Assembly: GCA_003644925.1 (NCBI GenBank)
Contig: QNDS01000002.1
Location: 1-40,684, forward strand
Direction of reading: 5' to 3'
Length of the DNA: 40,684 nt
Source of the DNA: Candidatus Fermentibacterota bacterium
GTDB taxonomy: Bacteria; Fermentibacterota; Fermentibacteria; Fermentibacterales; JCC-6
The position numbers and the translations under genes are program-made. Position 1 is the stretch's first letter. Each line of letters starts with the position of its first letter. The notes under the pieces were generated by a model that saw only the letters and a program-made list of their open reading frames with translations, did no database searches and was not told where the DNA came from. Shown here one piece after another: positions 3,389 through 40,542 of this stretch.

Positions 3389-3745
3389 TTGCGTGGACTG
3401 TTGGTATACGGGAAAGAGAGTGTCACATTCAAGGACGAAGAAAACGCACACACATACCTGAAACTGCTAGACGTCGAAAAGAGAATCAAACAATTGGAGG
3501 AAACTATGGCGGAGGAGATAGATGGTAAGCTACCCACGACTAAAAGCCGTGGGTCTCATTGGCACCAACGTAAGATGATTGATACGCACGTGATTAAACG
3601 GCTTCGTGTGAGTCGTGTGTTGGGTGTTGAGGAAATCGAAGGGGTTTCGGTGGATGTTATTTTCAAGGCAGAAGAGGGTGGGAAGTATGTTATCGATACC
3701 TTATCACTCAAGCGTTTGCTGAAAGATGTTGATGATGGAACTTAG
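3389..3745 (+). CDS. Hypothetical protein; possibly two ORFs fused in frame through an IS-end remnant.
   Basis: ORF track (TTG start). Residues GKLPTTKSRGSHWHQRK are encoded by the LE-like remnant at 3525-3574. An in-frame ATG at 3575 follows the remnant exactly as the ATG at 15471 follows the LE of the complete IS. Confidence 0.35.
   Translation: MRGLLVYGKESVTFKDEENAHTYLKLLDVEKRIKQLEETMAEEIDGKLPTTKSRGSHWHQRKMIDTHVIKRLRVSRVLGVEEIEGVSVDVIFKAEEGGKYVIDTLSLKRLLKDVDDGT
3525..3574 (-). repeat. Solo, degenerate IS left-end-like remnant.
   Basis: gtaagctacccacgactaaaagccgtggg...cgtaag parallels 22897-22949 (gtaagctaccctaggcttaaagctcgtggg...cgtaaa) and 15431-15470. Confidence 0.5.
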
Positions 3746-4505
3746 GGCGGAGATACTTCAGGGGAGGCTGTTGGAGTTTTTTAATGCGGCGGCGTATTGT
3801 GGTAACAAGATAGAGTTGCGGATGGATAAGGGAGGGATTGGGTTTTCACAGGTTTGCGTGGATGATCGGGGGTTGGGGGTAATGGATCTCTTCTCTGAGG
3901 ACTTCAATGAATACGTGTTCATCTCCCGATCTGGTGAATGCAGTGTTTGTTTATCTATCCATCCTATTTTAACAGCACTTAGTATGGTGGGGGATGATGA
4001 TTATGTCACGTTGAAGATAAACCGCCATGGGCTGTGGCTGAAATCCGAACACATGAAGCATTCCATGAATCTGGAGGAGGATATACTCTCCAGAACAAAT
4101 CACTTGCCTTCTGATTATGTGGCACAGGTTGAACTTGGTATAAACCAACTGCGTGAGTTGCTGTCTGGCATTAGATTGGACGACAAAGCAGATAATGTAT
4201 CTTTCATAACCACCCCCTTCATAACCAAACAGCAGGTGTTCCTGATAAGCTACGGAGAAATAGGGGGTCATTTCTTAACGGAGGTGGAAACGGGATTCAA
4301 GGTACTCTCTATGGGTGCTGGAGTGAGCACGAAATCAAGATACGATATTAATGACTTACTGCACTTCCTTGAGGCATTCCCTGATCATGATGCGATAATC
4401 TACTTAGGTAAAAAAGACTATCCCCTGCTTATTGAGGTTCTGCTTGGAACAGGTGTACTGAAATACTATCTTAGTCCAACAATCAAGGAGGAAAAAAATG
4501 TCTAA
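3726..4505 (+). CDS. PCNA-like sliding clamp (candidate).
   Basis: About 255 aa, the typical PCNA length. The C-terminus ...DYPLLIEVLLGTGVLKYYLSPTIKEE resembles the conserved archaeal PCNA end (PL.l.y.i..G.l.fyLAPkiEE). Regular beta-strand periodicity throughout. By-eye only. Confidence 0.5.
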   Translation: MLMMELRAEILQGRLLEFFNAAAYCGNKIELRMDKGGIGFSQVCVDDRGLGVMDLFSEDFNEYVFISRSGECSVCLSIHPILTALSMVGDDDYVTLKINRHGLWLKSEHMKHSMNLEEDILSRTNHLPSDYVAQVELGINQLRELLSGIRLDDKADNVSFITTPFITKQQVFLISYGEIGGHFLTEVETGFKVLSMGAGVSTKSRYDINDLLHFLEAFPDHDAIIYLGKKDYPLLIEVLLGTGVLKYYLSPTIKEEKNV

Positions 4506-20457: not shown

Positions 20458-20718
20458 GTGTTCGAGAAAAAATCAAAATGTGTCGGAGGTGGAGGGAAAT
20501 GGTTTGACGAACCCTTGCAGATGTGCCTATACGGCTCGAAAGGGAAATCAGAGATGGAAGCCGGATGCGACGAACTGCTATGCGTCTGCGAAGAACTAGG
20601 CGGGCTGGAAGAGAACATGAGGGGGGATCGATGCGTCTGTTTCATCAGGGATAAGCTGAAAAAAAGAGGGGAAATTCTCACAGGAAAACTAACAATGAGA
20701 CCTATATGGGGTGGATGA
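20458..20718 (+). CDS. Small Cys-containing hypothetical protein.
   Basis: Track ORF 20341..20718 trimmed to the GTG at 20458, after the upstream stop at 20455. Weak. Confidence 0.3.
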   Translation: MFEKKSKCVGGGGKWFDEPLQMCLYGSKGKSEMEAGCDELLCVCEELGGLEENMRGDRCVCFIRDKLKKRGEILTGKLTMRPIWGG

Positions 20719-22880
20719 TGGATTCATGGAATAATCTCGGAAAGACTGGGAAGGTGTTGTTGTTTCTTGTGTTGGGGGCTATTCTATATGCTGCGGTTTC
20801 ATGCTTCCTCCCGTTTGATGTCTCTCAGATGGCTGTTCTCTCTTTGAGTAATGTGAATTATCTCACCGATGATCCCGCATTCCATGGGAAAAGTGCGTGG
20901 TTGGTTAATTTCGTGGTATTTGGCGGGGGGCAGTATCTTAAGGGAACAACCAGTTACGTCACCCCCGAGGCAATAGCCTCTGAGGTGGGTCATGCAAGGA
21001 AGGGGTTCACGTTCACCGTGGAGAACATGTATGACTTCTGCGATTACAGGTTCGAGAAATCCGCTCAACTGAATCAATATACTATCCTATGGAAGAAACT
21101 TCCAACGGATTTTCTGTTCACTCCCGGGGGTGCTACTGGAGCGTGTGCGAATGATGGGGGGGGCTATATCCTGGTAGCAAATGACTTGCATGTGTGGTGC
21201 ATACGGAAAGAGATTGTTGGATACGTTGGTTCAATACCCACTCCCAGAGAAAGATGGAGCACGCAGATGACGTTGAAGGTGGATGGGAGAAGCCCGATAA
21301 CAGAAACAATATCCTCAGCAGACGAAACCTCCGCAACATTCGGGAACATAGGGCACGTCTCCTGGGTGGGAAGCCTCTGGACTGGAATGCAATGCCCCGT
21401 ATTCGGGGATAAAATCCCAGTATTCCATGATGTGTGGAGGATAGCAAACAAGGACACGTACAGGGATTATCTATTCTACTGGAATCAGGTGGAACGCGAT
21501 ATACGGGAGTGCGGGCATCTTGACGTATCCCCCTTACCTGCATTCTGCAACGCCGGCACACTAGCGAGAGACATAAATGAGGCGAACAAGAAAGCTAGGG
21601 TTCTCACATGCTCCGACGAGAAGATACACGGCACCCAAAGAATCGTTGGAGACACGGCAACCATAGCAGTAACCCAGCCGATAGCCGCTCCATCCTTCAC
21701 CCTACGGCTTCTGGCGGATGAGTTAGGCATAGCCTACCACCTCCCGGAGCCCGAGATCATAAAAGACAAAACCTACTGTGACCCGGACAATACGGAAGCC
21801 AGCGGAGGAACACTATATGTTGGGGTTCGGAATAAAGCATCTCAGGCAGGAGCTATAACAACAGTGGTATCATGTGAAGACACGGAGATTGCAGGATACA
21901 CTCCACGGCAGATGTATGACGCAAAAGAAATGAAGATACTATCTATCCCCCTCACACTCACAGAAACCATAAAAGAGGACATAGAAACCAAATGCACGGT
22001 GACAGCCTACGCCTCCGAGAAATCAGACGTATTGGATAAGTACACCTTCTACTGCGGCTGGAAGAATTTCGTAGGATGCACGCCCAAAGCAAGAATGTGC
22101 TCTGAAGACAACAAATACGTGGTCGAATGCAGCATGGACGGGAAGGGGTGGGCTCCCATCGAATCATGCAGATATGGTTGCGTGAACGGAGTATGTGGGA
22201 CAGAACCCACCAAATGCAGCATAATGACGCACGAACCCTGCGAAGGCGATGAAACATGCATCATGGACAGCATGCTCAACACCTACTGCAAGCAACTGAA
22301 ATGCAGACCAAACCAGGTAGCCAGAGACCATGAGTGCACAACGAAACCAACAATAGACCTCCCAATACTCTGGATGATGATATTCGCAGCAACAGGATTC
22401 CTCCTGGGGAAATACCTGATAGAATCCATGAACCTCACCGAAGCAAGACGCAGGATGGCACTAATCCTCATCGCAGCCATCTTCGCACTAATACCTGTCG
22501 GCATGGATCTTGCTGGAATGGAACTACCAGACATACAATCCGGATTCCTAACCTGTGAAGCAACAGAATCATTCCCCTTCCAGATTGCAGCAATGCTTGG
22601 GCTGCCCCTAGGAACATTCATGTGGTTCCTATCCCTCGGTCTTGGATTAATCTCCGGACTGGTAGCCTTCAGCACCACACGAAACATGAACTTAGGTAGA
22701 ACAACACAAGCAACAATATCCAGTATTGTAGCAGTAATAACCTGGAAGACGATATGCACAACATTCTGGATCGGGATCCTGTTCGGAGGCATAATCGCAG
22801 TCGTAGGCGTACTGTTGCTAGCATTCTTCCCTGAAGCAGTGGCAGGATGGGGACTACGGTTCGCGAAGGGGATGAAATAA
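20706..22880 (+). CDS. Large membrane protein: N-terminal TM, ~500-aa ectodomain ending in Cys modules, ~6 C-terminal TM helices.
   Basis: ORF track; CSEDNKYVVECSMDGKGWAPIESCRYGCVNGVC module; multiple hydrophobic helices from about residue 555 onward. Confidence 0.65.
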   Translation: MGWMMDSWNNLGKTGKVLLFLVLGAILYAAVSCFLPFDVSQMAVLSLSNVNYLTDDPAFHGKSAWLVNFVVFGGGQYLKGTTSYVTPEAIASEVGHARKGFTFTVENMYDFCDYRFEKSAQLNQYTILWKKLPTDFLFTPGGATGACANDGGGYILVANDLHVWCIRKEIVGYVGSIPTPRERWSTQMTLKVDGRSPITETISSADETSATFGNIGHVSWVGSLWTGMQCPVFGDKIPVFHDVWRIANKDTYRDYLFYWNQVERDIRECGHLDVSPLPAFCNAGTLARDINEANKKARVLTCSDEKIHGTQRIVGDTATIAVTQPIAAPSFTLRLLADELGIAYHLPEPEIIKDKTYCDPDNTEASGGTLYVGVRNKASQAGAITTVVSCEDTEIAGYTPRQMYDAKEMKILSIPLTLTETIKEDIETKCTVTAYASEKSDVLDKYTFYCGWKNFVGCTPKARMCSEDNKYVVECSMDGKGWAPIESCRYGCVNGVCGTEPTKCSIMTHEPCEGDETCIMDSMLNTYCKQLKCRPNQVARDHECTTKPTIDLPILWMMIFAATGFLLGKYLIESMNLTEARRRMALILIAAIFALIPVGMDLAGMELPDIQSGFLTCEATESFPFQIAAMLGLPLGTFMWFLSLGLGLISGLVAFSTTRNMNLGRTTQATISSIVAVITWKTICTTFWIGILFGGIIAVVGVLLLAFFPEAVAGWGLRFAKGMK

Positions 22881-23014: not shown

Positions 23015-26000
23015 ATGAAATCAAATCATAGAATCTGTTTTCTAGTTATGAGTATGCTTTGTGTTTCCTTAGTTCCGACTGCAAGTGCGTGGTGGAACCT
23101 CTCGTATGCTTATGAATATCAGTTAAATATTTCGTATGCTGGAAGCTATGCAACGCATACGTTGCAGCCGATAACCGTAAATATATCTAATTTGAATGGA
23201 TCAAACACCCCCGCGTTAGCAGTGCTTTATAATAATTCTGGAACATGGGTTGAGCAGGATTGGGAATGGCATTTCGAGAGAGACGGTTCACAATCAGTTA
23301 AGTCGTATGTTAATGATACAATTCGTTTCCTGGTGAACCTGACAAACAATACAGTTAATAGAGATTATTTTATCTACACCACCGATGACGGAAGCATTAA
23401 TGCAAAAAATACAAGTGTGTTTCTATGGTATGACGGCTTCGAGTTAGGGCACATTACAGGGTATGAGAATGAATACTTAACTCCCTCGGATGCAATAGAA
23501 TCTGGGGAAAAATATTTGGGTAGCTACTCAATTAAATCAGGTATTGGTGTAGCCCGTGTTAGATTTCCAGAAGCCTTTGATTCTGAACACATCTATTTCG
23601 GTGTTGCTATGAGGAGGAGTTCCACAACAAATCTCGTTTCTGTTGCGTATCTCGAAGATAATGCTAGAACAAACGCTTTTAGATTATTTATTGATGGAAT
23701 CTCTTACTCAACAGAAATGATAAAATGGAAGGAGGATGATGTGAGTCACCCAGTGAAGCCAGCGGTAAGAGAACAGTGGTATTATATCATGCTGAAGGGA
23801 TGTGATACAACAGGTTCTGATACGGTTTGCGATGGATTTTATGTTGACGGAGTCTTAAATGATACCTCCATAGGAACAACGGGAACAGTAACAGATGTGG
23901 AATATTTTGCGATATATAAAAATACAGGTTCAGGAGCGGAAACTTTTGATGAGATATATATCTCAGATAACAACTTTAACGTTTATCCAAACCTCCCCAC
24001 GATAAACGTTGAATCGGAGGACACGCAAGGTTTAAATCCAGGCATCTCAATCACCTTAAATTCACCCGTAGAGGGATATAATTCAACTGTGCAAACAATA
24101 ACATTTAACTGCTCATATTCCTGCACTGATTCCTCGATAGTTAACGTAAGCCTGTGGGGTAACTGGAGTGGATGGCATAGAAACGAGACTAATTCAACCC
24201 TTACTGGTTCAACGGGAACGGTTAAGTTTACAAAATCCCTCCCAAACGGGGAATATAAGTGGAATTGCTATGGCTGTAATAATGAAACAAACTGTAGTTT
24301 CGCCGCAAATAACCACACTTTCAGTGTAGATGCTGATATTATTGAACCAACAATTGTTTTGAACCATCCACCAAACGCTTCATCTGGAAACTTATCTTAC
24401 ATATTAAATGCAACAATAACAGATGATAAATCTAATTCACTTGACGTATATTTCTATGTTAATACCAGCCTTTTATCTCTCTCCTTAAACAGAATAAATG
24501 ATACTACGATATCACTAAACATCTCAGCTATGCCTATCTCTAATGCTTTAGATGGGTTGCAATTCCTTTTCCACTTCGATAACCTTTCCAAGTACGGCGA
24601 AACAAACACGCATGTCTATGACTTCTCTGGAAATGGAAACAACGGCACAGTATCTGGAGCAGTCTGGGATAATTTAGGTTGTAAATTTGGGGGATGTTAT
24701 GTTTTCGATGGAACCGATGACTACATTAATGCTGGGACATCAAATTTAACACTGACAGAAAATTTCACAGTCATGGCTTGGGTTAATGGTTCAAAGAATC
24801 AAGCAATAGAAACTCTTATCGCTAAATGGAACATCCAAGACAACTTTAGTAGCTTACCGTTTGAAGCCTTTAATGCTTCTAACATAAGCGGATATAACCT
24901 TGGTTCAATGTATAGCGGAACGAAGGGGTATCCCCACCCCATTTTTGATGGTAGGTATGTGTATTGGACACCTAATGTATGGGATTATCAACACTTCCAC
25001 ACATTAGCTATACGATATGATACCACCCTGCCATACAAGAATCTTTCTTCTTGGGAGGTTTTTAATATTTCTACAGCCACAGCATATTCAATCGGAGCAT
25101 ATAGGGATATGGTTTATGATGGGAGATATATCTATTACACTCCATATTTCGAAGCATATATTGCAAGATATGATACAACTGGTTCGTTCAATGAAACAAG
25201 TTCGTGGTATGTTTTTGATGCAAAAAACGTATCTAACTGCAATAATCAATGTTACGGATTTAATGGTGCAACTTTCGATGGTGAGTTTATTTACTATAAT
25301 CCATATAAAAGAAACGGTTCAGTTGTTCATTTTGATTTCATCAGATACAATACATCAAAACAATTTAACTTAAGTTCAAGTTGGGATTATGTTAACCTGA
25401 CTGGGAATATAGACGGAGTTTCACAGCCAACATATGGGTATTATGAAACCATTTACGTGAATGGGTATGTATATTATTCAACCATTCTTGATGATGAATT
25501 TTTGAGGTTTAATACATCCGGTGTATTTAATGACACTGGAAACTGGGATTTAAGAAGTGGAGGACAAGACGGTTGTGGGATTAGTGCGACAACAGATGGT
25601 AGATACATATATTTTCTTCCATACCGAACTGCTGGAGTTACATGGCACGGAAGAATCCAGAGGTATGACACATTCGGAGATTTTAATACAGGTGGGAACT
25701 GGGTGATTTACGATGCTGGTTCAGAAGACGGGATAACGATACGAGACTTACAGGGTGGAATATACGACGGTAAATATATCTATTTTATAGAGTATCATGA
25801 TGGTACCGATTCACAGCCACATATACTCCGGTATGATACCACAAAAGATTATACTTTATCTTCTTCATGGGATGCCATTAATTATGGTAGTGTGGATGGA
25901 TTACCAACTGAAGGGTACAAGGGGGGGTGTTACGATGGTCGATACATCTATTTTGGTCATACGGCAACTAAAAACCCTGGAATTAATGGAGGAAAAGATC

Positions 26001-29000
26001 TTGCACACGGTATGGCGTTAAGGTATGATACAGTTAAAGGAAACAATGCTTCATTTAGACTGCAGATTAATGCACCTATGGGAGAAAATGAGATGATGGG
26101 GCTTGTAAAAGGTGTTATGTTCACTATTTCAGGGACAAATAAAAGCTATTCAGTTATAGGGAACAACACATTCGATGACTCTGAATTACACCACATAGCT
26201 GTCACCTATAACGGGACAAATCTTATCATGTACATAGATGGAGTCAAGGAAGATGAAAGAGTGGTATCTCCTGCGATGTCTATTTCAAGCAGTTTAGAAG
26301 ATATTGTTATTGGAGCATCAACAAGTGATTCAAATGATTTTTTTAACGGCACCATAGACGAGTTAGGTATATTGAATAGAACTTTATCCGCATCAGAGGT
26401 TCTGGATAGTTATAGGATTAAAAACGGGACATATAGTTGGTATGTGAACGCAAGCGATGGAACAAACGTAAATAAGTCAGAAGTGAGAGTGTTTACAATA
26501 GGCTCAATAAATACCGCCCCCCAAATAACCCTTGTGTCCCCCGCAGACAACTCTACAAGCGTAAGCCTTAATGCAGTCATAAATTACACCTATACAGATG
26601 TCGATAATGAAGCAGGAAACTGTGTGCTTTATAATAACTCAGATAATACTGCAATCTGCACGAACAACTCAGTTGCAAACGGCACAACAATACACTGCAA
26701 TTCAGGTGTGGGAGCTTATTCCACAACATTCACCTATTATGTCAATTGCACGGACGGAACTGATATGACTAAGTCGAGTGTGTGGAATTTTACAACAGAA
26801 GCAGCCAAAATCTCATTATCCTACCATCTCCCCACCGAAACAAATGGCACCACAATCTCAACAAACCACACAGAAATAAACCACTCAATCACAATATCGG
26901 ACACCAGCAACAGCCTCGACACATTCAGATTCAATATTAGCGGGGCACGGAATGTCAGCTCAATAATCTACGACGACGACTTGGTTCTGGCTTTGAACTT
27001 CAACAATAATTCAGCCATCGGCGACAACGAAACCCACGTCATGGACATCAGCCAATACGGAAACAACGGCACGATGCATAACGGAACCCAAATCTGCGGG
27101 AACCACTCAAGCTGCCCGCATTATGTGGCGGGGAGGTTCGGGCAGGGGATGAGTTTCGACGGAGTGAATGATTACGTGGACTGCGGGAATGATAGTAGTT
27201 TGAATATTACTGATGCTGTTACGATTGAGGCATGGATAAAATCATCTTTTTCGGGTAGACGCTGGATTGTGTCAAAGGGCGGTTTTGATCAGTACTGGAT
27301 AGAAGTGTCAGACAGTGGTGATAAATCAAGGTTCTATATTAGGGATGGGGATGATGCATTCCACTCTTGTTTGGGAACAACTGATGTTACGGATGGGTTA
27401 TGGCATCAGGTTGTAGGAACTTATGATTATTCTGAGGGGTATGCAAGGGTTTACGTTGATGGGAAGAAACAAGCCACATGTGATTTTTCGGGAAAAAAGA
27501 TGAAGAATAATCCTACTAAAAAGGTCACAGTAGGAGCTGCGTCTTCGGGTGCACAAAATTTCAACGGCTCAATCGACGAAGTCCGCATCTATGATCGTGC
27601 TTTATCCGCTGATGAAGTCTGGCTTCATTACCAGAGTGAGTTCCAGAAATATAATGCTACGGAGTATCGGTTCTATGATAATCTCACGAATTTGGCGGAT
27701 GGGGAGTATCAGCATTATGGTTGGGCTAATGACTCAGCGGGGGGTGAGGACACCAGCGAAACAAGGTTTTTCACGGTGGATGTTCCCGCATTTTCTGTGT
27801 CACTGAATTCACCGCTTGATGACTCTTCCTTGGGTGATGTGATCCCTGATTTTAATTTCAGTGTGTCGGGGGATAGAAGCACATACACGTGTGAGTTGTT
27901 TATTAATGATTCGGGGTATGGTAGGGTGGAGAATTGGTGTTATCAGGAGTCAGCTAATGAGTCGACTGCGTGTGGTGGCTTGAACACTGGAACGTATGTG
28001 AATACAAGCGGGTGGGGTGCGGGTGTCGTTAATGTTACTGATGGTGATTGGTCGACTGCGGGTTATGGTAGTATCTTGGGGGATTATCTCTACATTAATT
28101 ACTCTAAGCCCGCGGGTTCGACGAGTAATTCTTTATGGCAGGTTAAGCGGGCTGTGGGTGCGGCATATAATCTCAGCTTATCTGCTGGCTGTTGGAACCA
28201 GAATCCTCTCCAGCTTAGGGTGTATGATAATAGTGCTGATGCGGGGAGCTGGTCTTTCTCATGTTTTGATGGTGTGGGCTGGAGTGTATTGAGTTCTGGA
28301 GTGACTAAGGGTGTTGCGGAGGAGGCTATGTGGTGGTCGATTGCTGATGGTAACACATCCAATAACACAGATACTGTAATAACTGCTAACACCACACTAT
28401 CTGATGGACACTATAACTGGTACATCAACTGCACGGTGGATGGGCGTACAAATCAATCCGTGGCAAGAACGTTTATGGTGGATACAACCCCTCCTGTTTG
28501 CACGATCATCTCACAAACTCCTGGAGATTTGAATCACAGCTCAAATGGTTCTTTTGTAGTGAAAGTCCACTGTGAAGATGCGACAGGATTTAATCTTAGT
28601 GCTTTGGGTATTGGATTAACATTAAACCATTCTGGATGCATGAATGCTTCCTGGAGATTCCCGTCAAACACTAAAGCAGACGGGTATTTAGACATGCAAC
28701 GTGCAGAGCATAGAAATGAGGGCGAGTGGTATGAGGGCTTATTCTCTAATATCTGGGAGTGGAGTTTTCACGATATTGGCTGTTGCCACATGAACATGAC
28801 TTATAATGGCACGTGTGCGGCAGGATATTGTGTGAATTTCACCTTCACAAAACAGGATATTCATAGTTTATTCCACTCCTTCTGGGCTCTGGATAAAAAT
28901 AGCTTAGAACATAGTGAAATGAATTATTTGGATGTTTACACGGGGAATCACGTTATCAGCAAAATATATCTGCCTAAATTGGAAGCGAATGCTACGCTGA

Positions 29001-31474
29001 TAATACACACCTACATAAACGACACGGGGGCGGTTAGAGATACATTAGGATATTTATGCAATAGCAGCAAAGAAACCGACGGAGTAACTACGGGATCCTC
29101 TCCAAACTGTGTATATTTCGGTAGTGTTGACAGAGATGACAGTTTTACATATTGCAAAGGGAATGCATGCTATCATGGCTTTTCTATGTTTATTGATGAA
29201 AATATGACTGTTGGTGGAGTAAAAGTTGAAGAAGAAATGTTTGTAATTTGGAGAAGCAGTGCAAATTTAGCTAACGCCTGGAAATTAGGATACAGCGATA
29301 ATACAACATTAATAGGGAATATTTCATTCAATAATTCAGGGCTACTTTATACTAGCTCTGATCATGGAATAACTTTCACCGCTCATAATGGGACAGGAGT
29401 AGTATGGGCTGCTGCCGTCCATGATGCTGTGGATATTTTAACTTATCAAATTTATTCTATAGATAATAGTACAGCGAAAACAGGCGGATGGAGTGGATTA
29501 ACAAAAGATTCTATTGGTGTGGTGCCTGAAGCTCCAGGAACTCCTGCAATAAATCATATTGACGGAGACACAAATAAAAACGGGACTTATTCCGGGGTGT
29601 TTGACATTGGATGTTTACTTGGAGAAGACCCAAACGGGGAACCTGTCACAGGAAATTTAAGTTTAAGGAATACTGACGGAAGCTTTAATTACACAATAAA
29701 CGGAAGCTTCAGCGATAATGGATCAATGATTAACGTCTCATTCAATAGCAGCCTCGTCGCAGACGGAACGTACAGGATGAACCTTACGAACTGCGATAAC
29801 ACAAGCAGGTGCTCCTCAACATTAATAGGTAATTTCACCATAGACAACACACCTCCCTACATAGCGTTCAACACATCAACCACGGCAGCAGGCAACCACC
29901 CTCAAAGCTTCATCCAAGTCAACATAACCGCACATGATATTGGGAGCGGCATAGATCTCATAAACATATCACTGTATAACTCCACAGGCGGGTTAGTGGA
30001 CAGCAACACCTCAGGCAGCTCACCCTTCCTAACGAACTTCACCGGGCTGTCGGATGGAGTATACTACTTGAATGCAACAGTCAACGACAGTGCAGGGAAC
30101 CTGAACCACACACCCACCAGAACAATAGAGTTAAATACTCTACCCTCATCAATAACCTTAATATCTCCAGCAGACAATAACTGGACACTCGACAACCCAA
30201 TCAACTTCACATTCAAATACACCGGCGGAGACGCGACAGAAAACTGTAAACTATACATCGACAACGTGCTCGCAGACACAAATGCATCAACAAAAAACAA
30301 CACCAACACCCTCCTACAGGCTGCGGGAGTCGCTGAAGGAAACCACACATGGAACGTTAACTGCACAAACAACGCCGGAAACCAGAACACCTCACTAACA
30401 CGGAACATATATGTAGACCGAACCAAACCAAGAATACCGCTGAATTCACCCCCCAACAACACATACGCCCCCAGCAACACACCAACCTTCAACTTCACCG
30501 TAATCGACATGGACACAAACCTATCATGTGAACTACTGATCGGCGGAGCAGGATACGGCGAAACAACCGCCTTAAACAACACTCCAACAACCATAACAGC
30601 AAACCACAGCCTCCCTAACGGAGTGCACTACTGGAACATAACCTGCTCAGACGAACTCCAAACCAACACCTCAAAAACATGGAACCTAACCGTGGACACA
30701 ATCAAACCACACATCCAACTCAACCTACCAAACGGCACATCAACAAACAACCAGACGCCCACATTCAACTTCACGGTAACAGACAACATAGACACAAACA
30801 TGCTCTGCGAACTAACCGTGGACGGAATAACCTACGGTCAAATCTACGCAGACAACAACACAATCACCAACATCACAGCCAACGCAACACTATCCTACGG
30901 CACACTGCACTGGAACATCACCTGCACAGACAACGCAACAAACCAGAACACCTCCCTAACCTACCTAATACAGATACTATCACCCACGGTCTCCATGCCA
31001 GCTGGATGGAACATCATAGGCTTAACAAGAAACCGAACCTACACCGCAGAAACAATATGCCAGAACATAACCGGCTGCACGGTAACATCCAACTACTCCG
31101 GCGGAAACTACCACAGCCACATAAAAGGACTCCCCTTCAACATATTCCCAATAAAATTCGGATACGGATACTTCATCCACCTCTCACAGGCAACAACATT
31201 CCTGCAAACAGGCGACGCACTAGTATCTCCCACAAAAAACATAACCGTGGAACTGGAGGAAGGATGGAACATCATAGCATGGGCTAATGAAGTAACAAAC
31301 ACAACAGCAGAAGCCGTCTGCATCGACATCCCCTCATCATACATCAGCAAATACGAGCCAGCAACAGGATTCACAACCCACCTCAAAGGAAATCCATTGA
31401 ACAACTTCACCGTGGTGGGAGGTAAAGGATATTTCGTTTGGCTCAATCAAACAAGGAATTGGACGCATAACTGA
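23015..31474 (+). CDS. Giant (2819 aa) secreted, heavily sequon-decorated adhesin-like protein with two LamG domains, a 7-repeat propeller-like insert and Ig-like repeats.
   Basis: Single uninterrupted ORF. Signal peptide MKSNHRICFLVMSMLCVSLVPTASA. Nine N-x-S/T sequons in the first ~135 residues. No C-terminal TM helix. Confidence 0.85.
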   Translation: MKSNHRICFLVMSMLCVSLVPTASAWWNLSYAYEYQLNISYAGSYATHTLQPITVNISNLNGSNTPALAVLYNNSGTWVEQDWEWHFERDGSQSVKSYVNDTIRFLVNLTNNTVNRDYFIYTTDDGSINAKNTSVFLWYDGFELGHITGYENEYLTPSDAIESGEKYLGSYSIKSGIGVARVRFPEAFDSEHIYFGVAMRRSSTTNLVSVAYLEDNARTNAFRLFIDGISYSTEMIKWKEDDVSHPVKPAVREQWYYIMLKGCDTTGSDTVCDGFYVDGVLNDTSIGTTGTVTDVEYFAIYKNTGSGAETFDEIYISDNNFNVYPNLPTINVESEDTQGLNPGISITLNSPVEGYNSTVQTITFNCSYSCTDSSIVNVSLWGNWSGWHRNETNSTLTGSTGTVKFTKSLPNGEYKWNCYGCNNETNCSFAANNHTFSVDADIIEPTIVLNHPPNASSGNLSYILNATITDDKSNSLDVYFYVNTSLLSLSLNRINDTTISLNISAMPISNALDGLQFLFHFDNLSKYGETNTHVYDFSGNGNNGTVSGAVWDNLGCKFGGCYVFDGTDDYINAGTSNLTLTENFTVMAWVNGSKNQAIETLIAKWNIQDNFSSLPFEAFNASNISGYNLGSMYSGTKGYPHPIFDGRYVYWTPNVWDYQHFHTLAIRYDTTLPYKNLSSWEVFNISTATAYSIGAYRDMVYDGRYIYYTPYFEAYIARYDTTGSFNETSSWYVFDAKNVSNCNNQCYGFNGATFDGEFIYYNPYKRNGSVVHFDFIRYNTSKQFNLSSSWDYVNLTGNIDGVSQPTYGYYETIYVNGYVYYSTILDDEFLRFNTSGVFNDTGNWDLRSGGQDGCGISATTDGRYIYFLPYRTAGVTWHGRIQRYDTFGDFNTGGNWVIYDAGSEDGITIRDLQGGIYDGKYIYFIEYHDGTDSQPHILRYDTTKDYTLSSSWDAINYGSVDGLPTEGYKGGCYDGRYIYFGHTATKNPGINGGKDLAHGMALRYDTVKGNNASFRLQINAPMGENEMMGLVKGVMFTISGTNKSYSVIGNNTFDDSELHHIAVTYNGTNLIMYIDGVKEDERVVSPAMSISSSLEDIVIGASTSDSNDFFNGTIDELGILNRTLSASEVLDSYRIKNGTYSWYVNASDGTNVNKSEVRVFTIGSINTAPQITLVSPADNSTSVSLNAVINYTYTDVDNEAGNCVLYNNSDNTAICTNNSVANGTTIHCNSGVGAYSTTFTYYVNCTDGTDMTKSSVWNFTTEAAKISLSYHLPTETNGTTISTNHTEINHSITISDTSNSLDTFRFNISGARNVSSIIYDDDLVLALNFNNNSAIGDNETHVMDISQYGNNGTMHNGTQICGNHSSCPHYVAGRFGQGMSFDGVNDYVDCGNDSSLNITDAVTIEAWIKSSFSGRRWIVSKGGFDQYWIEVSDSGDKSRFYIRDGDDAFHSCLGTTDVTDGLWHQVVGTYDYSEGYARVYVDGKKQATCDFSGKKMKNNPTKKVTVGAASSGAQNFNGSIDEVRIYDRALSADEVWLHYQSEFQKYNATEYRFYDNLTNLADGEYQHYGWANDSAGGEDTSETRFFTVDVPAFSVSLNSPLDDSSLGDVIPDFNFSVSGDRSTYTCELFINDSGYGRVENWCYQESANESTACGGLNTGTYVNTSGWGAGVVNVTDGDWSTAGYGSILGDYLYINYSKPAGSTSNSLWQVKRAVGAAYNLSLSAGCWNQNPLQLRVYDNSADAGSWSFSCFDGVGWSVLSSGVTKGVAEEAMWWSIADGNTSNNTDTVITANTTLSDGHYNWYINCTVDGRTNQSVARTFMVDTTPPVCTIISQTPGDLNHSSNGSFVVKVHCEDATGFNLSALGIGLTLNHSGCMNASWRFPSNTKADGYLDMQRAEHRNEGEWYEGLFSNIWEWSFHDIGCCHMNMTYNGTCAAGYCVNFTFTKQDIHSLFHSFWALDKNSLEHSEMNYLDVYTGNHVISKIYLPKLEANATLIIHTYINDTGAVRDTLGYLCNSSKETDGVTTGSSPNCVYFGSVDRDDSFTYCKGNACYHGFSMFIDENMTVGGVKVEEEMFVIWRSSANLANAWKLGYSDNTTLIGNISFNNSGLLYTSSDHGITFTAHNGTGVVWAAAVHDAVDILTYQIYSIDNSTAKTGGWSGLTKDSIGVVPEAPGTPAINHIDGDTNKNGTYSGVFDIGCLLGEDPNGEPVTGNLSLRNTDGSFNYTINGSFSDNGSMINVSFNSSLVADGTYRMNLTNCDNTSRCSSTLIGNFTIDNTPPYIAFNTSTTAAGNHPQSFIQVNITAHDIGSGIDLINISLYNSTGGLVDSNTSGSSPFLTNFTGLSDGVYYLNATVNDSAGNLNHTPTRTIELNTLPSSITLISPADNNWTLDNPINFTFKYTGGDATENCKLYIDNVLADTNASTKNNTNTLLQAAGVAEGNHTWNVNCTNNAGNQNTSLTRNIYVDRTKPRIPLNSPPNNTYAPSNTPTFNFTVIDMDTNLSCELLIGGAGYGETTALNNTPTTITANHSLPNGVHYWNITCSDELQTNTSKTWNLTVDTIKPHIQLNLPNGTSTNNQTPTFNFTVTDNIDTNMLCELTVDGITYGQIYADNNTITNITANATLSYGTLHWNITCTDNATNQNTSLTYLIQILSPTVSMPAGWNIIGLTRNRTYTAETICQNITGCTVTSNYSGGNYHSHIKGLPFNIFPIKFGYGYFIHLSQATTFLQTGDALVSPTKNITVELEEGWNIIAWANEVTNTTAEAVCIDIPSSYISKYEPATGFTTHLKGNPLNNFTVVGGKGYFVWLNQTRNWTHN
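24548..26416 (+). other. LamG (Laminin_G_3 / concanavalin-A-like) domain 1, apparently split by a ~400-aa insertion.
   Basis: N-terminal half: LFHFDN..THVYDFSGNGNNGTVSGAVW..GGCYVFDGTDDYINAG..FTVMAWVN. C-terminal half: ..HHIAVTYNGTNLIMYIDGV..FFNGTIDELGILNRTLSASEVLDSY. Coordinates are approximate. Confidence 0.6.
24840..26045 (+). other. Seven tandem ~55-aa repeats ([FY]DG[RK]Y[IV]Y[FYW]...R[YF][DN]T...SW), a probable 7-bladed beta-propeller.
   Basis: FDGRYVYWTP, YDGRYIYYTPY, FDGEFIYYNPY, VNGYVYYST, TDGRYIYFLPY, YDGKYIYFIEY, YDGRYIYFGH. Each is followed by an (I/L)RY(D/N)T-type strand. Confidence 0.5.
26981..27633 (+). other. LamG (Laminin_G_3-like) domain 2, contiguous.
   Basis: LALNFNN..THVMDISQYGNNGTMHNG..GQGMSFDGVNDYVDCGN..VTIEAWIK..WHQVVGTYD..VYVDGKK..FNGSIDEVRIYDRALSADEVWLHY. 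Confidence 0.7.
30143..31471 (+). other. Three Ig-like ~90-aa repeats, then two terminal ~75-aa GWNII modules.
   Basis: Repeats have the form ..SP.DN.....P.F.F.......C.L.......................H.WN..C.D...N.N.S.......D. They are followed by AGWNIIGL...GYGYFIHL and EGWNIIAW...GKGYFVWL. Confidence 0.45.
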
Positions 31475-38241: not shown

Positions 38242-38709
38242 ATGCAGAAAATAGAATCCAAACAGGCGATCGCCATCGGAGCAGGAGCTGTCGGAACAGC
38301 ATTCATGTGGAAAATACTCAAAAAAAAATTCAGGAAAAAAAGAGAAGGACTATACGTTGACTTTGACGGCACAATATGCAAAAACAAATTCCCAGATGTG
38401 GGAGAGCCAGAACCCTACGTCAGGGAAGCCCTCACAAAAATGATAAAAAAATATGATATTGTCATACACAGTTGCAGGACAGCAAAATACTGGACGGAGT
38501 TCTTCAAAGACCATAAGCCAGAAGAGCAGGTTACAGTCATAGAAAAATTCATGGAAAAATACAAGATACCCTACACCCGCATAGAAACAGACCACGACAA
38601 ACCCTTCGCCCACAGATACATCGGCGACGAAGCCATCAACTACAACAACAACTGGGAGGAAATAGCATCCAAACTCTTGGAGGCGGGAAAAAGTGATCAA
38701 AAAAGCTGA
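38242..38709 (+). CDS. HAD-superfamily phosphatase-like protein with an N-terminal hydrophobic segment.
   Basis: The motif YVDFDGTI is the DxDGT nucleophile motif. ...VIHSCRT is motif II-like and KPFAHRYIGDEA is motif III/IV-like. Confidence 0.5.
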   Translation: MQKIESKQAIAIGAGAVGTAFMWKILKKKFRKKREGLYVDFDGTICKNKFPDVGEPEPYVREALTKMIKKYDIVIHSCRTAKYWTEFFKDHKPEEQVTVIEKFMEKYKIPYTRIETDHDKPFAHRYIGDEAINYNNNWEEIASKLLEAGKSDQKS

Positions 38710-40177
38710 CTTGGTGCTTACAGAAAGATGTAATCTGAACTGCGTTCATTGTCAAAGTAGAGATGCACGTATCACAACATCCACCGGTATCAAAGAGATA
38801 AAAGACGTTGAGGTAGGGGATGAGGTATTAACCCTCTCTGGCAAGTTTGCTAAAGTAGAAAAAATATTCTCCCACCATCAGAGTCCAGCAATACTTTCTA
38901 TAAAACCCCATCACCTCCCCTCTGGGAAGATGACAAGCAATCATGAAGTTCTTGTAATGGAGGGAGGTCTAACGACAAAAATAGAAGCAGGCAAACTAAC
39001 TTTAAATCATTATCTCATAGCCCCTAAATCCAAAAAAAATAAATTAAATGAACTAAAACAATCCGAATTCTCAACGGAATTTGAAAACTATTGGGCAATA
39101 AAAGTGCAGGAACTCAAGTCAGTTCCCTACTCAGGGGAGGTATTTAATCTACAAGTCGATGATCCAAACCATAGCTATGTTGCAAACGGAATTGCTGTTG
39201 GAAATTGTTTCATGTACGACGCAGGCAATAATCGCACCATCCGGGAACCCTCCCAAAAACAAGTGCTTGATACTTTTGAAACTCTCGCATCTAATGGGAT
39301 TACTAAATTGAATATGTGGGGTGGTGAGGTTCATCTACGCCAGGATTTCTATGAGATTCTCAAGGTTGCATTGGATATGTTCTCCCAAGTGAGCATACAG
39401 ACTCATGGGGCGATTGAGACCTATCTGGGGTTCATCCACAAAGACTATCCTACTCTTGGTGTTCATGTGAGCTTGGAGGGGTGGGGTAAAGATGATGAAG
39501 TAATACGTGGGCGGGGGCATTTCCTGAGAGCCAAACGCAATATTGAGATATTGGCTCAACAATTAGGGGAAGCTCTGACGATAAGAACCACCATATTCAA
39601 TGGAAACAACGTCATCCCCCTCATACAGGTGGCGTTGGATTTAGGTTGCTCTTGGGTTGGTGTCAGATTCAAACCAGTGGGGCGGGGGCAGAAACTCCTG
39701 AAGCTACAGCCGTCTCAGGAACGGCTTGCTGACTTATACCGGCTTGTTGCATCAATACGGAAGTCCCACAAGAACATTCTGCTGGAGGAAACCCCCTTCT
39801 ACCTCTATGATGAGTACCTCTCCCAGAAATACCAGAATTATTTCCTGAGGAAAGGGTTCGCCTGTGAGTGGGGTAGGCGGATAGTGGTTGACGTGGACGG
39901 TAGGGCTTTTCCATGTCCATACGCTATGACGGATTCATTAGGTCTCGGTTCAATACTTGAAGATGACTTCAAGGTTATCGAAGAAAACTACAGAACACTC
40001 ATAAAACAACGCCAGAACACGGAATTAATAAGCCAATGTAACATCTGCCCACTACGTGATGCCTGTTTCGGGGGTTGCTCGATTTATTCATTATTTAATG
40101 AGGATAAGCGGCTGGGTGATCCATTATGCCCAATTCCCTCACTACTTAGTGGAAACGGAAGCCAAAAACAAAAATAG
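38693..40177 (+). CDS. Radical SAM / SPASM-domain enzyme carrying a mini-intein.
   Basis: CNLNCVHC (CX3CX2C); GGE motif (WGGEVHL). The C-terminal SPASM pattern is CEWGRRIVVDVDGRAFPC ... CNICPLRDACFGGC ... C. GTG start overlapping the HAD gene end by 17 nt. Confidence 0.85.
   Translation: MIKKADLVLTERCNLNCVHCQSRDARITTSTGIKEIKDVEVGDEVLTLSGKFAKVEKIFSHHQSPAILSIKPHHLPSGKMTSNHEVLVMEGGLTTKIEAGKLTLNHYLIAPKSKKNKLNELKQSEFSTEFENYWAIKVQELKSVPYSGEVFNLQVDDPNHSYVANGIAVGNCFMYDAGNNRTIREPSQKQVLDTFETLASNGITKLNMWGGEVHLRQDFYEILKVALDMFSQVSIQTHGAIETYLGFIHKDYPTLGVHVSLEGWGKDDEVIRGRGHFLRAKRNIEILAQQLGEALTIRTTIFNGNNVIPLIQVALDLGCSWVGVRFKPVGRGQKLLKLQPSQERLADLYRLVASIRKSHKNILLEETPFYLYDEYLSQKYQNYFLRKGFACEWGRRIVVDVDGRAFPCPYAMTDSLGLGSILEDDFKVIEENYRTLIKQRQNTELISQCNICPLRDACFGGCSIYSLFNEDKRLGDPLCPIPSLLSGNGSQKQK
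38750..39205 (+). other. Mini-intein (152 aa, residues 20-171), no homing-endonuclease domain.
   Basis: Block A CQSRDARITTSTG..VGDEVLT. Block B MTSNHEVLV (TxxH). Blocks F/G VFNLQVDDPNHSYVANGIAVGN, followed by the +1 Cys. Excision rebuilds CNLNCVH-CFMYDAG. Confidence 0.75.
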
Positions 40178-40188
40178 GTGATATCAAA

Positions 40189-40542
40189 ATGCGTGAAGAA
40201 TTAACAAAACACAAAGTAAAAATAGAACAACAAAAAGACGGCAAAACCTACGGTTGCATACTGGATGAAAACGACCCACGGGGGGACGCAGTATGTTTTG
40301 TTGAGGGTGAGGGCATAGAACGGATTAGCGGAACCTTCAAGACGATAGAGGATGAGAGCACCATAAGAACAATTCCAATGACCTCGATAACTGGCACACA
40401 ATCTCAGGTAGAGAAGATGGATTTGCATGATTTTGTCGCCGATAACCTGCCCATCTGGCAGAGACAATTAGAGTCCAAACGGAGGCGGGGGCTTGGCTCG
40501 GAGGTTGTTGATAAACTTAAGAACATGGTGGGGGGTGACTGA
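40189..40542 (+). CDS. Hypothetical protein (117 aa).
   Basis: ORF track; ATG 11 nt after the radical SAM stop. Confidence 0.45.
   Translation: MREELTKHKVKIEQQKDGKTYGCILDENDPRGDAVCFVEGEGIERISGTFKTIEDESTIRTIPMTSITGTQSQVEKMDLHDFVADNLPIWQRQLESKRRRGLGSEVVDKLKNMVGGD

Follow-up and report, generated by a model that had tools for sequence, protein, structure and literature searches.

Among the inteins described so far, that of Pyrococcus abyssi MoaA is reported in the accounts given by PMC3922620 and PMC10663303 to contain a disulfide between the Cys at position -3 and Cys1, which acts as a redox trap (Callahan 2011, as cited there). Oxidation-sensitive splicing that operates through active-site cysteines is described in PMC3922620 also for the Mtu SufB and Msm DnaB inteins and for the Pab and Mma PolII inteins. 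According to the references in PMC4031507 (Chen, Benner & Perler 2000 and the Ssp DnaE structure), splicing in the absence of the penultimate His is documented as well.

The window, i.e. the whole stretch of 40,684 nt from a Candidatus Fermentibacterota bacterium (contig QNDS01000002.1), contains an intein inserted exactly before the third Cys of the CX3CX2C cluster motif of a radical-SAM/SPASM enzyme. The features discussed below are:

38679..38683, + strand: Shine-Dalgarno-like GGAGG, read from the sequence, 9 nt upstream of the GTG at 38693.
38693..40177, + strand: precursor ORF of the radical-SAM/SPASM enzyme with the intein inside, 494 aa plus stop, GTG start.
38693..38749, + strand: N-extein, residues 1-19, with His19 as the -1 residue; holds C13 and C17, ligands 1 and 2 of the radical-SAM cluster.
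38750..39205, + strand: class-1 mini-intein, residues C20-N171, 152 aa, no homing endonuclease (PF14890, TIGR01443, HINT fold, absence from homologues).
38933..38944, + strand: intein block B, sequence motif T81-S-N-H84 (TxxH).
39140..39205, + strand: intein blocks F and G, sequence motif V150-F-N152...H160-SYVANGIAV-G170-N171.
39206..40177, + strand: C-extein, residues 172-494, starting with C172; includes WGGE and the core of the TIM barrel.
39863..40129, + strand: SPASM seven-Cys motif C391-x11-G-x4-C408 ... C449-x2-C452-x5-C458-x3-C462 ... C479 (PF13186, TIGR04085).
40189..40542, + strand: conserved 117-aa gene after the radical-SAM gene, in the same order in related contigs.

The GTG start at 38693 is supported by the GGAGG 9 nt upstream, and the N-terminus of the precursor (MIKKADLVLT) is colinear with the homologue N-termini MTMIKKVDVVLT and MAMFKKADLVLT. 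The exteins match the Pfam Radical_SAM model (PF04055; 41.5 bits, cut-off 29.5) as well as the SPASM models (PF13186, 23.8 bits, cut-off 21.5; TIGR04085, 42.5 bits, cut-off 27), and the N-extein aligns to the cluster loop of SkfB, LTNACNLSCSFC. The CX3CX2C motif (C13, C17, C172) is complete only once the intein has been removed in silico, and the resulting protein, in which WGGE is present, aligns over its full length with SkfB, PqqE, GDGT-MAS and MoaA, cluster loop included. By its position C172 has a double role, as the +1 nucleophile of the intein and as the third CX3CX2C ligand. The extein has lost none of its ten cluster cysteines and still contains GGE, and the SPASM cysteines are all conserved in homologues. 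None of the named radical-SAM equivalogs in NCBIfam (MftC, PqqE, Tes, MoaA) scored above its curated cut-off, the best match being mycofactocin MftC (85.9 bits vs a cut-off of 265), with the others further below. The extein represents an orphan radical-SAM/SPASM family, which is very rare: only about six members were found, it was detected neither in GTDB species genomes nor in IMG/VR, metagenomes gave only three loci, and tblastn against INPHARED phages gave no match. In every related contig a small gene lies 3' of the radical-SAM gene (106 aa in L001, 106 aa in L002, 116 aa in L004); its 117-aa counterpart in the window, which has no Pfam match, is a possible partner or substrate of the enzyme. 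A reading of the window as a tailed virus was also considered and found no support, the 30 neighbouring ORFs giving almost no Pfam or PHROGs matches.

The sequence-only reading had recognised a Hint-type mini-intein in this ORF, and its boundaries (residues 20-171), its blocks (Cys1, TSNH, VFNLQV, the GN end and the +1 Cys) and its lack of an endonuclease domain all hold up. The 152-aa segment scores above the cut-offs of both intein models, Intein_splicing (PF14890; 42.2 bits, cut-off 35.8, E 9e-11) and TIGR01443 intein_Cterm (24.1 bits, cut-off 15.6), while Pfam and NCBIfam profile scans of the precursor detected no endonuclease domain. An AlphaFold2 model (pLDDT 83, pTM 0.79), used as a Foldseek query, retrieved the gp41-1, PhoCDC21-1, Ssp DnaB and Npu DnaB mini-inteins with E ~2e-8 and probability 1.00. 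The 456-nt intein frame is intact and every catalytic residue is present: VFNLQV occupies residues 150-155, HSYVANGIAVGN/C occupies residues 160-172 (here and below the slash marks the splice junction), and the C-terminus, VFNLQVDDPNHSYVANGIAVGN/C, ends in the terminal Asn followed by the +1 Cys, as required for blocks F/G. Two typical but non-obligatory assisting residues are missing, namely the penultimate His (G:6), replaced by G170, and the Asp at F:4, a position identified by visual comparison with canonical block F, replaced by N152. The features of the other classes are absent, as the first residue is Cys1 rather than Ala1, F:4 is Asn rather than Cys, and there is no Trp-Cys-Thr motif; the last observation rules out a class-3 intein. 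Eight aligned mini-inteins inserted at CX3CX2/C show no variation at C1, at the T and H of block B, at the F-block N, at the terminal N or at the +1 C. The precursor itself reads C13-x3-C17-x2-C20, with Cys1 of the intein in the third position, so the mimicry of the cluster motif proposed earlier is indeed there. The intein differs from its host gene in base composition, with 38.8% GC vs 45.9% in the exteins and a GC3 of 32% vs 49% (Fisher p = 6e-4 for GC3), which suggests that it is probably of mobile origin. A word-indexed homology search with the intein alone found no relative, a profile built from eight inteins matched only fragments, IMG/VR contained no close relative, and the copy in the window is the only one found.

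Four homologues, 43-69% identical, lack the 152-aa segment and carry an unbroken CNxxCxHC. The segment is missing from P0002, P0005 and P0006 and from re-called ORFs in two related contigs (L002, 9914..10948; L001, 4254..5861), with the exteins colinear; the sequences at the junction are CNLRCSHCMVY, CQSRCIHCFFY and CQCRCIHCFAY. The junction was compared by protein alignment, a DNA-level MAFFT alignment being uninformative; so precise a pattern of presence and absence lies far beyond chance. The placement directly before the third Cys, with the +1 Cys as a cluster ligand, is thereby borne out, and splicing would rebuild CX3CX2C, because the intein-free homologues read the motif without a break. 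The L001 homologue has a different intein at the SPASM GX4/C site, and P0016 and P0125 have inteins at three Fe-S ligand cysteine sites. The automatic gene calls of two homologues (P0003, P0004) begin downstream of the cluster motif, a truncation of relevance for annotation.

A survey of the insertion site, which had been suggested together with the impression that inteins are not commonly described there, leads to a different picture. We found inteins exactly at CX3CX2/C in about 26 of the 150 top database relatives (representative matches) and the same junction in nine further proteins; named GTDB species genomes with an intein at exactly this site, from archaea as well as bacteria, number at least 40. 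The hosts belong to the AmmeMemoRadiSam, NrdG/PflA-like, B12-binding and CXXX-repeat maturase radical-SAM subfamilies, in a survey whose query included the extein flanks and is thus enriched for radical-SAM hosts. CX3CX2/C serves inteins as a recurrent "home" throughout the radical-SAM superfamily; the site is invariant and essential, and it offers the obligatory +1 Cys. Our literature searches found no paper on inteins with the CxxxCxxC motif and none on inteins with tetraether lipid synthase. That this site and other SPASM Fe-S ligand cysteines are recurrent targets in archaea and bacteria is apparently not explicit in the searchable open literature. The intein in the window is in itself unremarkable, a class-1 mini-intein whose insertion site is occupied in many genomes and for which experimental precedent exists.

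Taken together, the element is very probably a class-1 mini-intein that was probably acquired horizontally and has since lost its endonuclease, that separates His19 from the third cluster Cys without breaking the frame, and on whose splicing the function of the enzyme depends. We infer that it is competent to splice and that it would do so in the canonical order of steps: an N-to-S acyl shift at Cys20, assisted by T81 and H84; attack on the thioester by Cys172; cyclisation of Asn171 with release of the intein; and an S-to-N shift joining His19 to Cys172. Only at this point would C172 join C13 and C17 in the CX3CX2C loop beside the TIM-barrel core, where the [4Fe-4S]/SAM site could assemble, and the enzyme would therefore be inactive until spliced.

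The same reading is compatible with a conditional switch, in which the decoy C13-x3-C17-x2-C20 is either oxidised to a Cys17-Cys20 disulfide or binds an Fe-S cluster. Either event would sequester the thiol of Cys1, and splicing, and with it maturation of the enzyme, would have to await a reducing or anaerobic environment replete in Fe-S. Oxidative trapping is chemically plausible here, because the precursor has Cys17-x-x-Cys20, i.e. the Cys-3/Cys1 spacing attributed in PMC3922620 and PMC10663303 to the disulfide trap of P. abyssi MoaA, and redox gating of the intein in the window is plausible as well; the idea that splicing is coupled to Fe-S or redox state has its published forerunner in the MoaA intein. 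The enzyme class is moreover oxygen-labile, and inteins lie repeatedly at Fe-S ligand cysteines (the L001, P0016 and P0125 cases above). However, the geometry is automatic for any Cys1 intein inserted before the third Cys, so selection need not be invoked to explain the pattern, and homing to conserved motifs that offer a +1 Cys accounts equally well for the recurrence. The flanking residues are also disordered in the AlphaFold2 model (pLDDT <50 for residues 1-8). We consider the switch possible but somewhat doubtful. Decidedly more speculative, and in our view improbable, is its generalisation, according to which CX3CX2/C inteins would constitute a widespread class, so far unrecognised, of switches that control the maturation of oxygen-labile radical-SAM enzymes, acting via the decoy CX3CX2C (as a disulfide or a transient Fe-S cluster), and the different inteins at two Fe-S ligand cysteines in one small family would reflect selection and not homing alone. 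If true, the genuine third ligand would be committed only in a reducing, Fe-S-replete cell.

Against the view that the intein splices it could be argued that it is degenerate, with GN where HN is usual, an Asn at position F:4 and no endonuclease, and that the radical-SAM gene is effectively inactivated. A penultimate Gly is said, in work by Wang and Liu from 1997, to have impaired the Ceu ClpP intein, whose splicing was reportedly blocked in E. coli, and only one copy of the intein in the window was found. The intact frame and full set of catalytic residues speak against decay, as do the ten cluster cysteines and the GGE kept by the extein. Moreover, the relatives at CX3CX2/C have S, G, C, A or H as the penultimate residue, with GN in 10 GTDB species genomes; GN, SN, CN and AN endings together with Asn at F:4 are the norm at this site, including in full-length inteins in 40 species genomes. 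Judged from these sequences, the penultimate Gly is a lineage trait and carries no sign of decay. Its earlier interpretation as evidence of impaired splicing thus loses its force, also in view of the non-His inteins that splice according to the references in PMC4031507, and we regard loss of splicing as very unlikely. That the 152 aa might be an integral enzyme domain or a non-splicing bacterial intein-like (BIL) domain is scarcely credible: BIL and Hedgehog Hint domains also occur among the fold-search matches, but intein models are the best HMM matches, the segment has a canonical Asn at its end and an equally canonical +1 Cys after it, an essential metal site would be broken up if the insertion stayed in place, and the homologues that are contiguous across the junction, entirely without the segment, effectively refute this reading.

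The mini-intein in the window can be compared with four known systems or groups of systems. The first comprises the inteins at CX3CX2/C of other radical-SAM proteins from metagenomes and MAGs (e.g. P0021, P0041, P0065, P0047, P0125; loci L008-L058), whose junction is identical on both sides. They share with it the blocks TPNH/TSNH, VYNLEV/VFNLQV and (D)HSYxAxxxAVxN/C, frequently with a non-His penultimate residue, at 31-35% identity over the intein; most of them are 400-470 aa long, with room for an endonuclease domain, whereas that of the window has 152 aa and resides in another extein family. The second is the NCBIfam model NF045703 ("tetraether lipid synthase Tes, intein-containing"), a curated radical-SAM model with an intein at the same C-junction. 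Its alignment crosses from the C-terminal part of the intein into the extein without interruption (residues 114-239 vs model positions 550-681), and the C-junctions can be equated because the alignment of the intein-free Tes model NF045702 begins at residue 171. With 63 bits vs a cut-off of 1700 the protein from the window is not Tes, and the Tes intein is longer, ~500 aa by model coordinates.

The third group comprises redox- or stress-responsive inteins in other hosts. Mtu SufB, as presented in PMC3922620, likewise ties an intein to Fe-S metabolism, but the Mtu SufB, Msm DnaB and Pab/Mma PolII inteins, unlike the one described here, do not lie at a cluster-ligating Cys of a radical-SAM motif. 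In the fourth, the P. abyssi MoaA intein, the native disulfide makes splicing redox-dependent according to the cited accounts. The hosts differ, i.e. MoaA vs an orphan SPASM enzyme, the latter with V and H between the cysteines, and no MoaA-like C-junction was present among the retrieved matches. The Cys-3/Cys1 spacing in MoaA is what an intein placed in front of the third CX3CX2C Cys would be expected to show, the identity of the site being deduced from the description in PMC3922620 and PMC10663303 rather than from an alignment. The Cys at -3 that characterises redox-trap inteins is present in the window (C17-V-H-C20). With 152 aa, no endonuclease and a natural host, this intein offers a convenient test system for redox or Fe-S gating of splicing at a radical-SAM cluster Cys, and it has in common with the MoaA intein, as the latter is described in these sources, both a radical-SAM host and a Cys1 three residues after an N-extein Cys.

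The precursor gene, with GGAGG 9 nt 5' of its GTG start as read from the sequence and overlapped on the minus strand by short, unsupported ORFs only, is organized as follows:

38693..40177, plus strand: precursor ORF, radical-SAM/SPASM enzyme, GTG start, 494 aa
38750..39205, plus strand: intein, residues 20-171, opening CQSRDARITT, TSNH at 81-84, then VFNLQVDDPNHSYVANGIAVGN

Precursor residues 1-20 read MIKKADLVLTERCNLNCVHC, i.e. C13-x3-C17-x2-C20, and the residue after the intein is C172, with which the C-extein opens (C172-FMYDAG). On re-reading of ORF residues and nucleotides, the coordinates and motifs of the sequence-only reading proved exact, as did its remark that the precursor mimics CX3CX2C through the intein Cys1 (C13, C17 and C20 are present in the ORF).

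For the isolated 152-aa segment the Pfam Intein_splicing profile yields 42.2 bits (cut-off 35.8, E 9e-11) and TIGR01443 (intein C-terminal region) 24.1 bits vs a cut-off of 15.6, Hint_2 lies slightly under its cut-off, and profile scans of the intein were negative for endonuclease domains (LAGLIDADG, HNH or others), in agreement with the earlier assignment to the Hint type without endonuclease. An AlphaFold2 model of the segment with 12-aa flanks, calculated on an alignment of relatives, is confident and all-beta (pLDDT 83, pTM 0.79). Its Foldseek matches in the PDB are nearly all inteins, with a few BIL and Hedgehog Hint domains; gp41-1, PhoCDC21-1, Ssp DnaB and Npu DnaB, all mini-inteins, rank highest (E ~2e-8, probability 1.00). 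As anticipated, the 152 aa are missing from homologues, namely the database proteins P0002 (341 aa, 69% identity), P0005 (363 aa) and P0006 (344 aa), in which the junction reads CNLRCSHCMVY, CNMRCKHCFIG and CSLCCKHCMVS, respectively, and from the full ORFs obtained from re-read DNA of two related contigs, L002 9914..10948 (MAMFKKADLVLTTQCQSRCIHCFFYADG) and L001 4254..5861 (MTMFKKADLVLTNQCQCRCIHCFAYADG), both intein-free at CX3CX2C. The intein-free homologues, together with the profile and fold evidence, argue that the segment is a precise, in-frame, dispensable insertion bearing every intein hallmark, and on these sequence comparisons we regard it as confirmed that a radical-SAM/SPASM enzyme here carries, at its third cluster cysteine, a genuine class-1 mini-intein.

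The extein exceeds the curated cut-offs of Radical_SAM (41.5 bits vs 29.5), SPASM (23.8 vs 21.5) and TIGR04085 (42.5 vs 27), and possesses a complete C-terminal seven-Cys SPASM motif (C391-x11-G-x4-C408 ... C449-x2-C452-x5-C458-x3-C462 ... C479). Spliced in silico, the protein aligns to the structures of SkfB, PqqE, GDGT-MAS (Tes), anSME and MoaA; in the one alignment displayed, its LTERCNLNCVHC falls on the SkfB cluster loop LTNACNLSCSFC. No named equivalog cut-off of NCBIfam was reached, the best being that of the mycofactocin maturase (86 bits vs 265). The family is small: a search with the spliced sequence found ~6 members among 5.8 billion proteins, none was found in GTDB species genomes or IMG/VR, and metagenomes contain three loci, one on the same contig as L001. 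The database gene calls P0004 (L001 4377..5861) and P0003 (L002 10001..10948) begin 3' of CX3CX2C, the true starts being L001 4254 and L002 9914; these truncated calls are an annotation artefact that conceals the cluster motif.

The interpretation offered by the sequence-only reading is supported in part only. That reading was not aware that inteins are commonly described at the insertion site, which the searches show not to be unusual. An exhaustive HMMER search with query residues 1-200 gave 1951 matches at E up to 1e-3, and ~26 among the 150 matches listed are radical-SAM proteins interrupted by an intein at precisely CX3CX2|C, with Cys as the +1 residue (e.g. CNLRCVF|CMPPDT...AVSN|CQNYEVSQ and CNLRCKY|CLSGDT...VHN|CYQINKG), a count biased toward such matches by the extein flanks in the query. 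When the retrieved set was re-scored with the intein alone, radical-SAM-site inteins accounted for six of the eight best domains (in proteins P0021, P0065, P0047, P0103, P0163 and P0041), and a word-indexed search added nine CX3CX2|C examples. A scan of GTDB species genomes with one C-junction pattern, [SGC]N|CQN.., revealed 54 loci, in Chloroflexota, Bipolaricaulota, Patescibacteria and Rhodothermus as well as in Nitrososphaerales, Thermoplasmata, Methanomassiliicoccales, Micrarchaeota, Woesearchaeota and Bathyarchaeota. The N-junction CX3CX2|C is found in the same ORF at 40 of them (implied intein length 176-470 aa), while most of the others are interrupted by contig ends or the edge of the retrieved flank. 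Hosts after in-silico splicing include an AmmeMemoRadiSam enzyme (258 bits vs cut-off 220), an NrdG/PflA-like activase, a B12-binding radical-SAM protein and a CXXX-repeat peptide maturase. The mini-intein is a new case, in a new rare host family, of a known widespread kind.

Nor is the penultimate Gly, noted in that reading as a variant that impairs at least one described intein, peculiar here or a sign that splicing is impaired. Among the matches listed, inteins at CX3CX2|C end in SN, GN, CN, AN, KN or HN, and GN recurs in ten GTDB species genomes, the search pattern having allowed only S, G or C there. N152 occupies the usual Asp F:4 position, set by eye against canonical block F, and is invariant in eight mini-inteins of this site. 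His G:6 and F:4 are given only as assisting residues in a review that also cites, besides the Ceu ClpP case, studies of splicing in which the penultimate His is lacking (PMC4031507). Because relatives at the site share these endings and N152, and both positions only assist, the penultimate Gly and Asn F:4 are to be read as marks of lineage, not decay.

The intein DNA has a GC content of 38.8% and GC3 of 32%, vs 45.9% and 49% in the exteins (Fisher p = 6e-4 for GC3), and its GC lies at the 7th percentile of 456-nt windows over the contig; these low values are consistent with a foreign origin. No close relative was found by a word-indexed homology search with the intein alone or in IMG/VR, and an HMM of the intein detected no second intein in the window. 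The L001 gene (4254..5861, plus strand) contains a different, ~190-aa intein directly before the second SPASM cysteine, equivalent to C408 (VDVDGAVYP|CFPAGTQ ... FIVHN|CPYAMT), i.e. two distinct inteins are found at two Fe-S ligand cysteines inside one small extein family. Two unrelated CXXX-repeat/anSME-like radical-SAM/SPASM maturases, P0016 and P0125, are each interrupted by three inteins: one at CX3CX2|C, one preceding the 'CGG' SPASM cysteine and one preceding the final Cys of CX2CX5CX3C. The +1 Cys is an Fe-S ligand at all three sites. Thus, Fe-S ligand cysteines are generally favoured as intein sites.

Most ORFs of the contig remained without annotation in Pfam/PHROGs-type scans of the neighbouring ORFs; the exceptions and the immediate neighbours are:

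3726..4505, plus strand: archaeal-type PCNA, 259 aa (end-to-end NF002222 alignment, E 7.8e-6; weak PHROG processivity-factor match)
20706..22880, plus strand: fusexin-1-like protein, 724 aa (NCBIfam NF053506 E 4.8e-16; PDB 7P4L, Fsx1, E 1e-3)
23015..31474, plus strand: Laminin_G_3 and Big_13 surface protein, 2819 aa
34753..35238: acylphosphatase-domain ORF, 161 aa
35638..38235, plus strand: anchored surface protein, 865 aa (signal-peptide-like N-terminus, poly-Thr linker, CarboxypepD_reg/PEGA, C-terminal transmembrane anchor)
38242..38709, plus strand: BT0820-type HAD phosphatase, 155 aa (NF046079 E 7e-8; PDB 2obb E 1e-3)
40189..40542, plus strand: member of a group of 106-117-aa proteins 3' of the radical-SAM/SPASM gene (also L001 5869..6189, L002 10956..11276, L004 11042..11392)

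The PCNA-like protein is suggestive of a replicon or mobile element from archaea. The 'fusexin 1' match covers residues 162-527 vs model 133-508 of 610, with a score far under the cut-off, and the protein is possibly a divergent member of the archaeal HAP2-like fusogens; archaeal fusexins have been reported in integrated mobile elements (PMC9259645). From this gene content and that report, the window probably belongs to a mobile element of archaea or to a small archaeal genome. The order ~870-aa anchored surface protein, radical-SAM gene, ~110-aa protein is kept in the related loci L001, L002 and L004. The HAD phosphatase gene, which in the window lies between the first two and shares 17 nt with the start of the radical-SAM gene, is missing at this position in all three. 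The 106-117-aa protein, which has no family match, shows a conserved G-C...V-C-F pattern. Its gene is invariably the one after the radical-SAM/SPASM gene, and the protein could be a substrate or partner of the enzyme. On L004, a 225-kb scaffold, a gene for ribosomal protein S27e lies 3 kb upstream of the cluster, so at least this copy may be chromosomal and archaeal. TnpB-like genes (Cas12f1-like_TNB domain) are present in L001 (9745..11034) and L002 (17630..18841). The elements are intein-rich: at L002 12885..14381 (plus strand) and L003 4047..5543, a 498-aa protein that combines Intein_splicing with LAGLIDADG_3 is encoded where L001 (7800..8111) and L004 (13027..13344) have a 103-105-aa gene, so a very small host protein appears to carry a full-length intein.

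By the canonical class-1 route, splicing would link His19 with Cys172 and give a functional CX3CX2C beside the barrel; in the unspliced precursor, C13, C17 and C20 would imitate the motif, but the intein would separate them from the SAM-binding core. As for the choice of site, homing endonucleases would aim at invariant DNA, the essential Cys would serve as the +1 nucleophile, and imprecise intein loss would be lethal to the enzyme; this standard account is sufficient. Plausibly, and without excluding that account, splicing could be redox-dependent as in Pab MoaA, through either a disulfide between Cys17 and Cys20 or ligation of a metal by Cys1, although the C-x-x-Cys1 geometry is automatic for any Cys1 intein at CX3CX2|C.

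Two known systems bear comparison. For Tes, NCBIfam curates NF045703, 'tetraether lipid synthase Tes, intein-containing', to which precursor residues 114-239 align unbroken (model positions 550-681), crossing from the C-terminal part of the intein to the extein, while the alignment of the intein-free Tes model begins at residue 171; in Tes, therefore, the intein terminates at this same cysteine. MoaA, too, is a radical-SAM enzyme. Reviews describe its P. abyssi intein as having a native disulfide that links Cys-3 of the N-extein with Cys1 and stops splicing until reduced (PMC3922620, PMC10663303). An intein placed ahead of the third CX3CX2C cysteine gives just this Cys-3/Cys1 spacing, and, judging from the reviews' description of these cysteines rather than from sequence, the MoaA intein would occupy the same site as that of the window. 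For the hypothesis that redox state or Fe-S gates splicing, P. abyssi MoaA is a precedent already in print.
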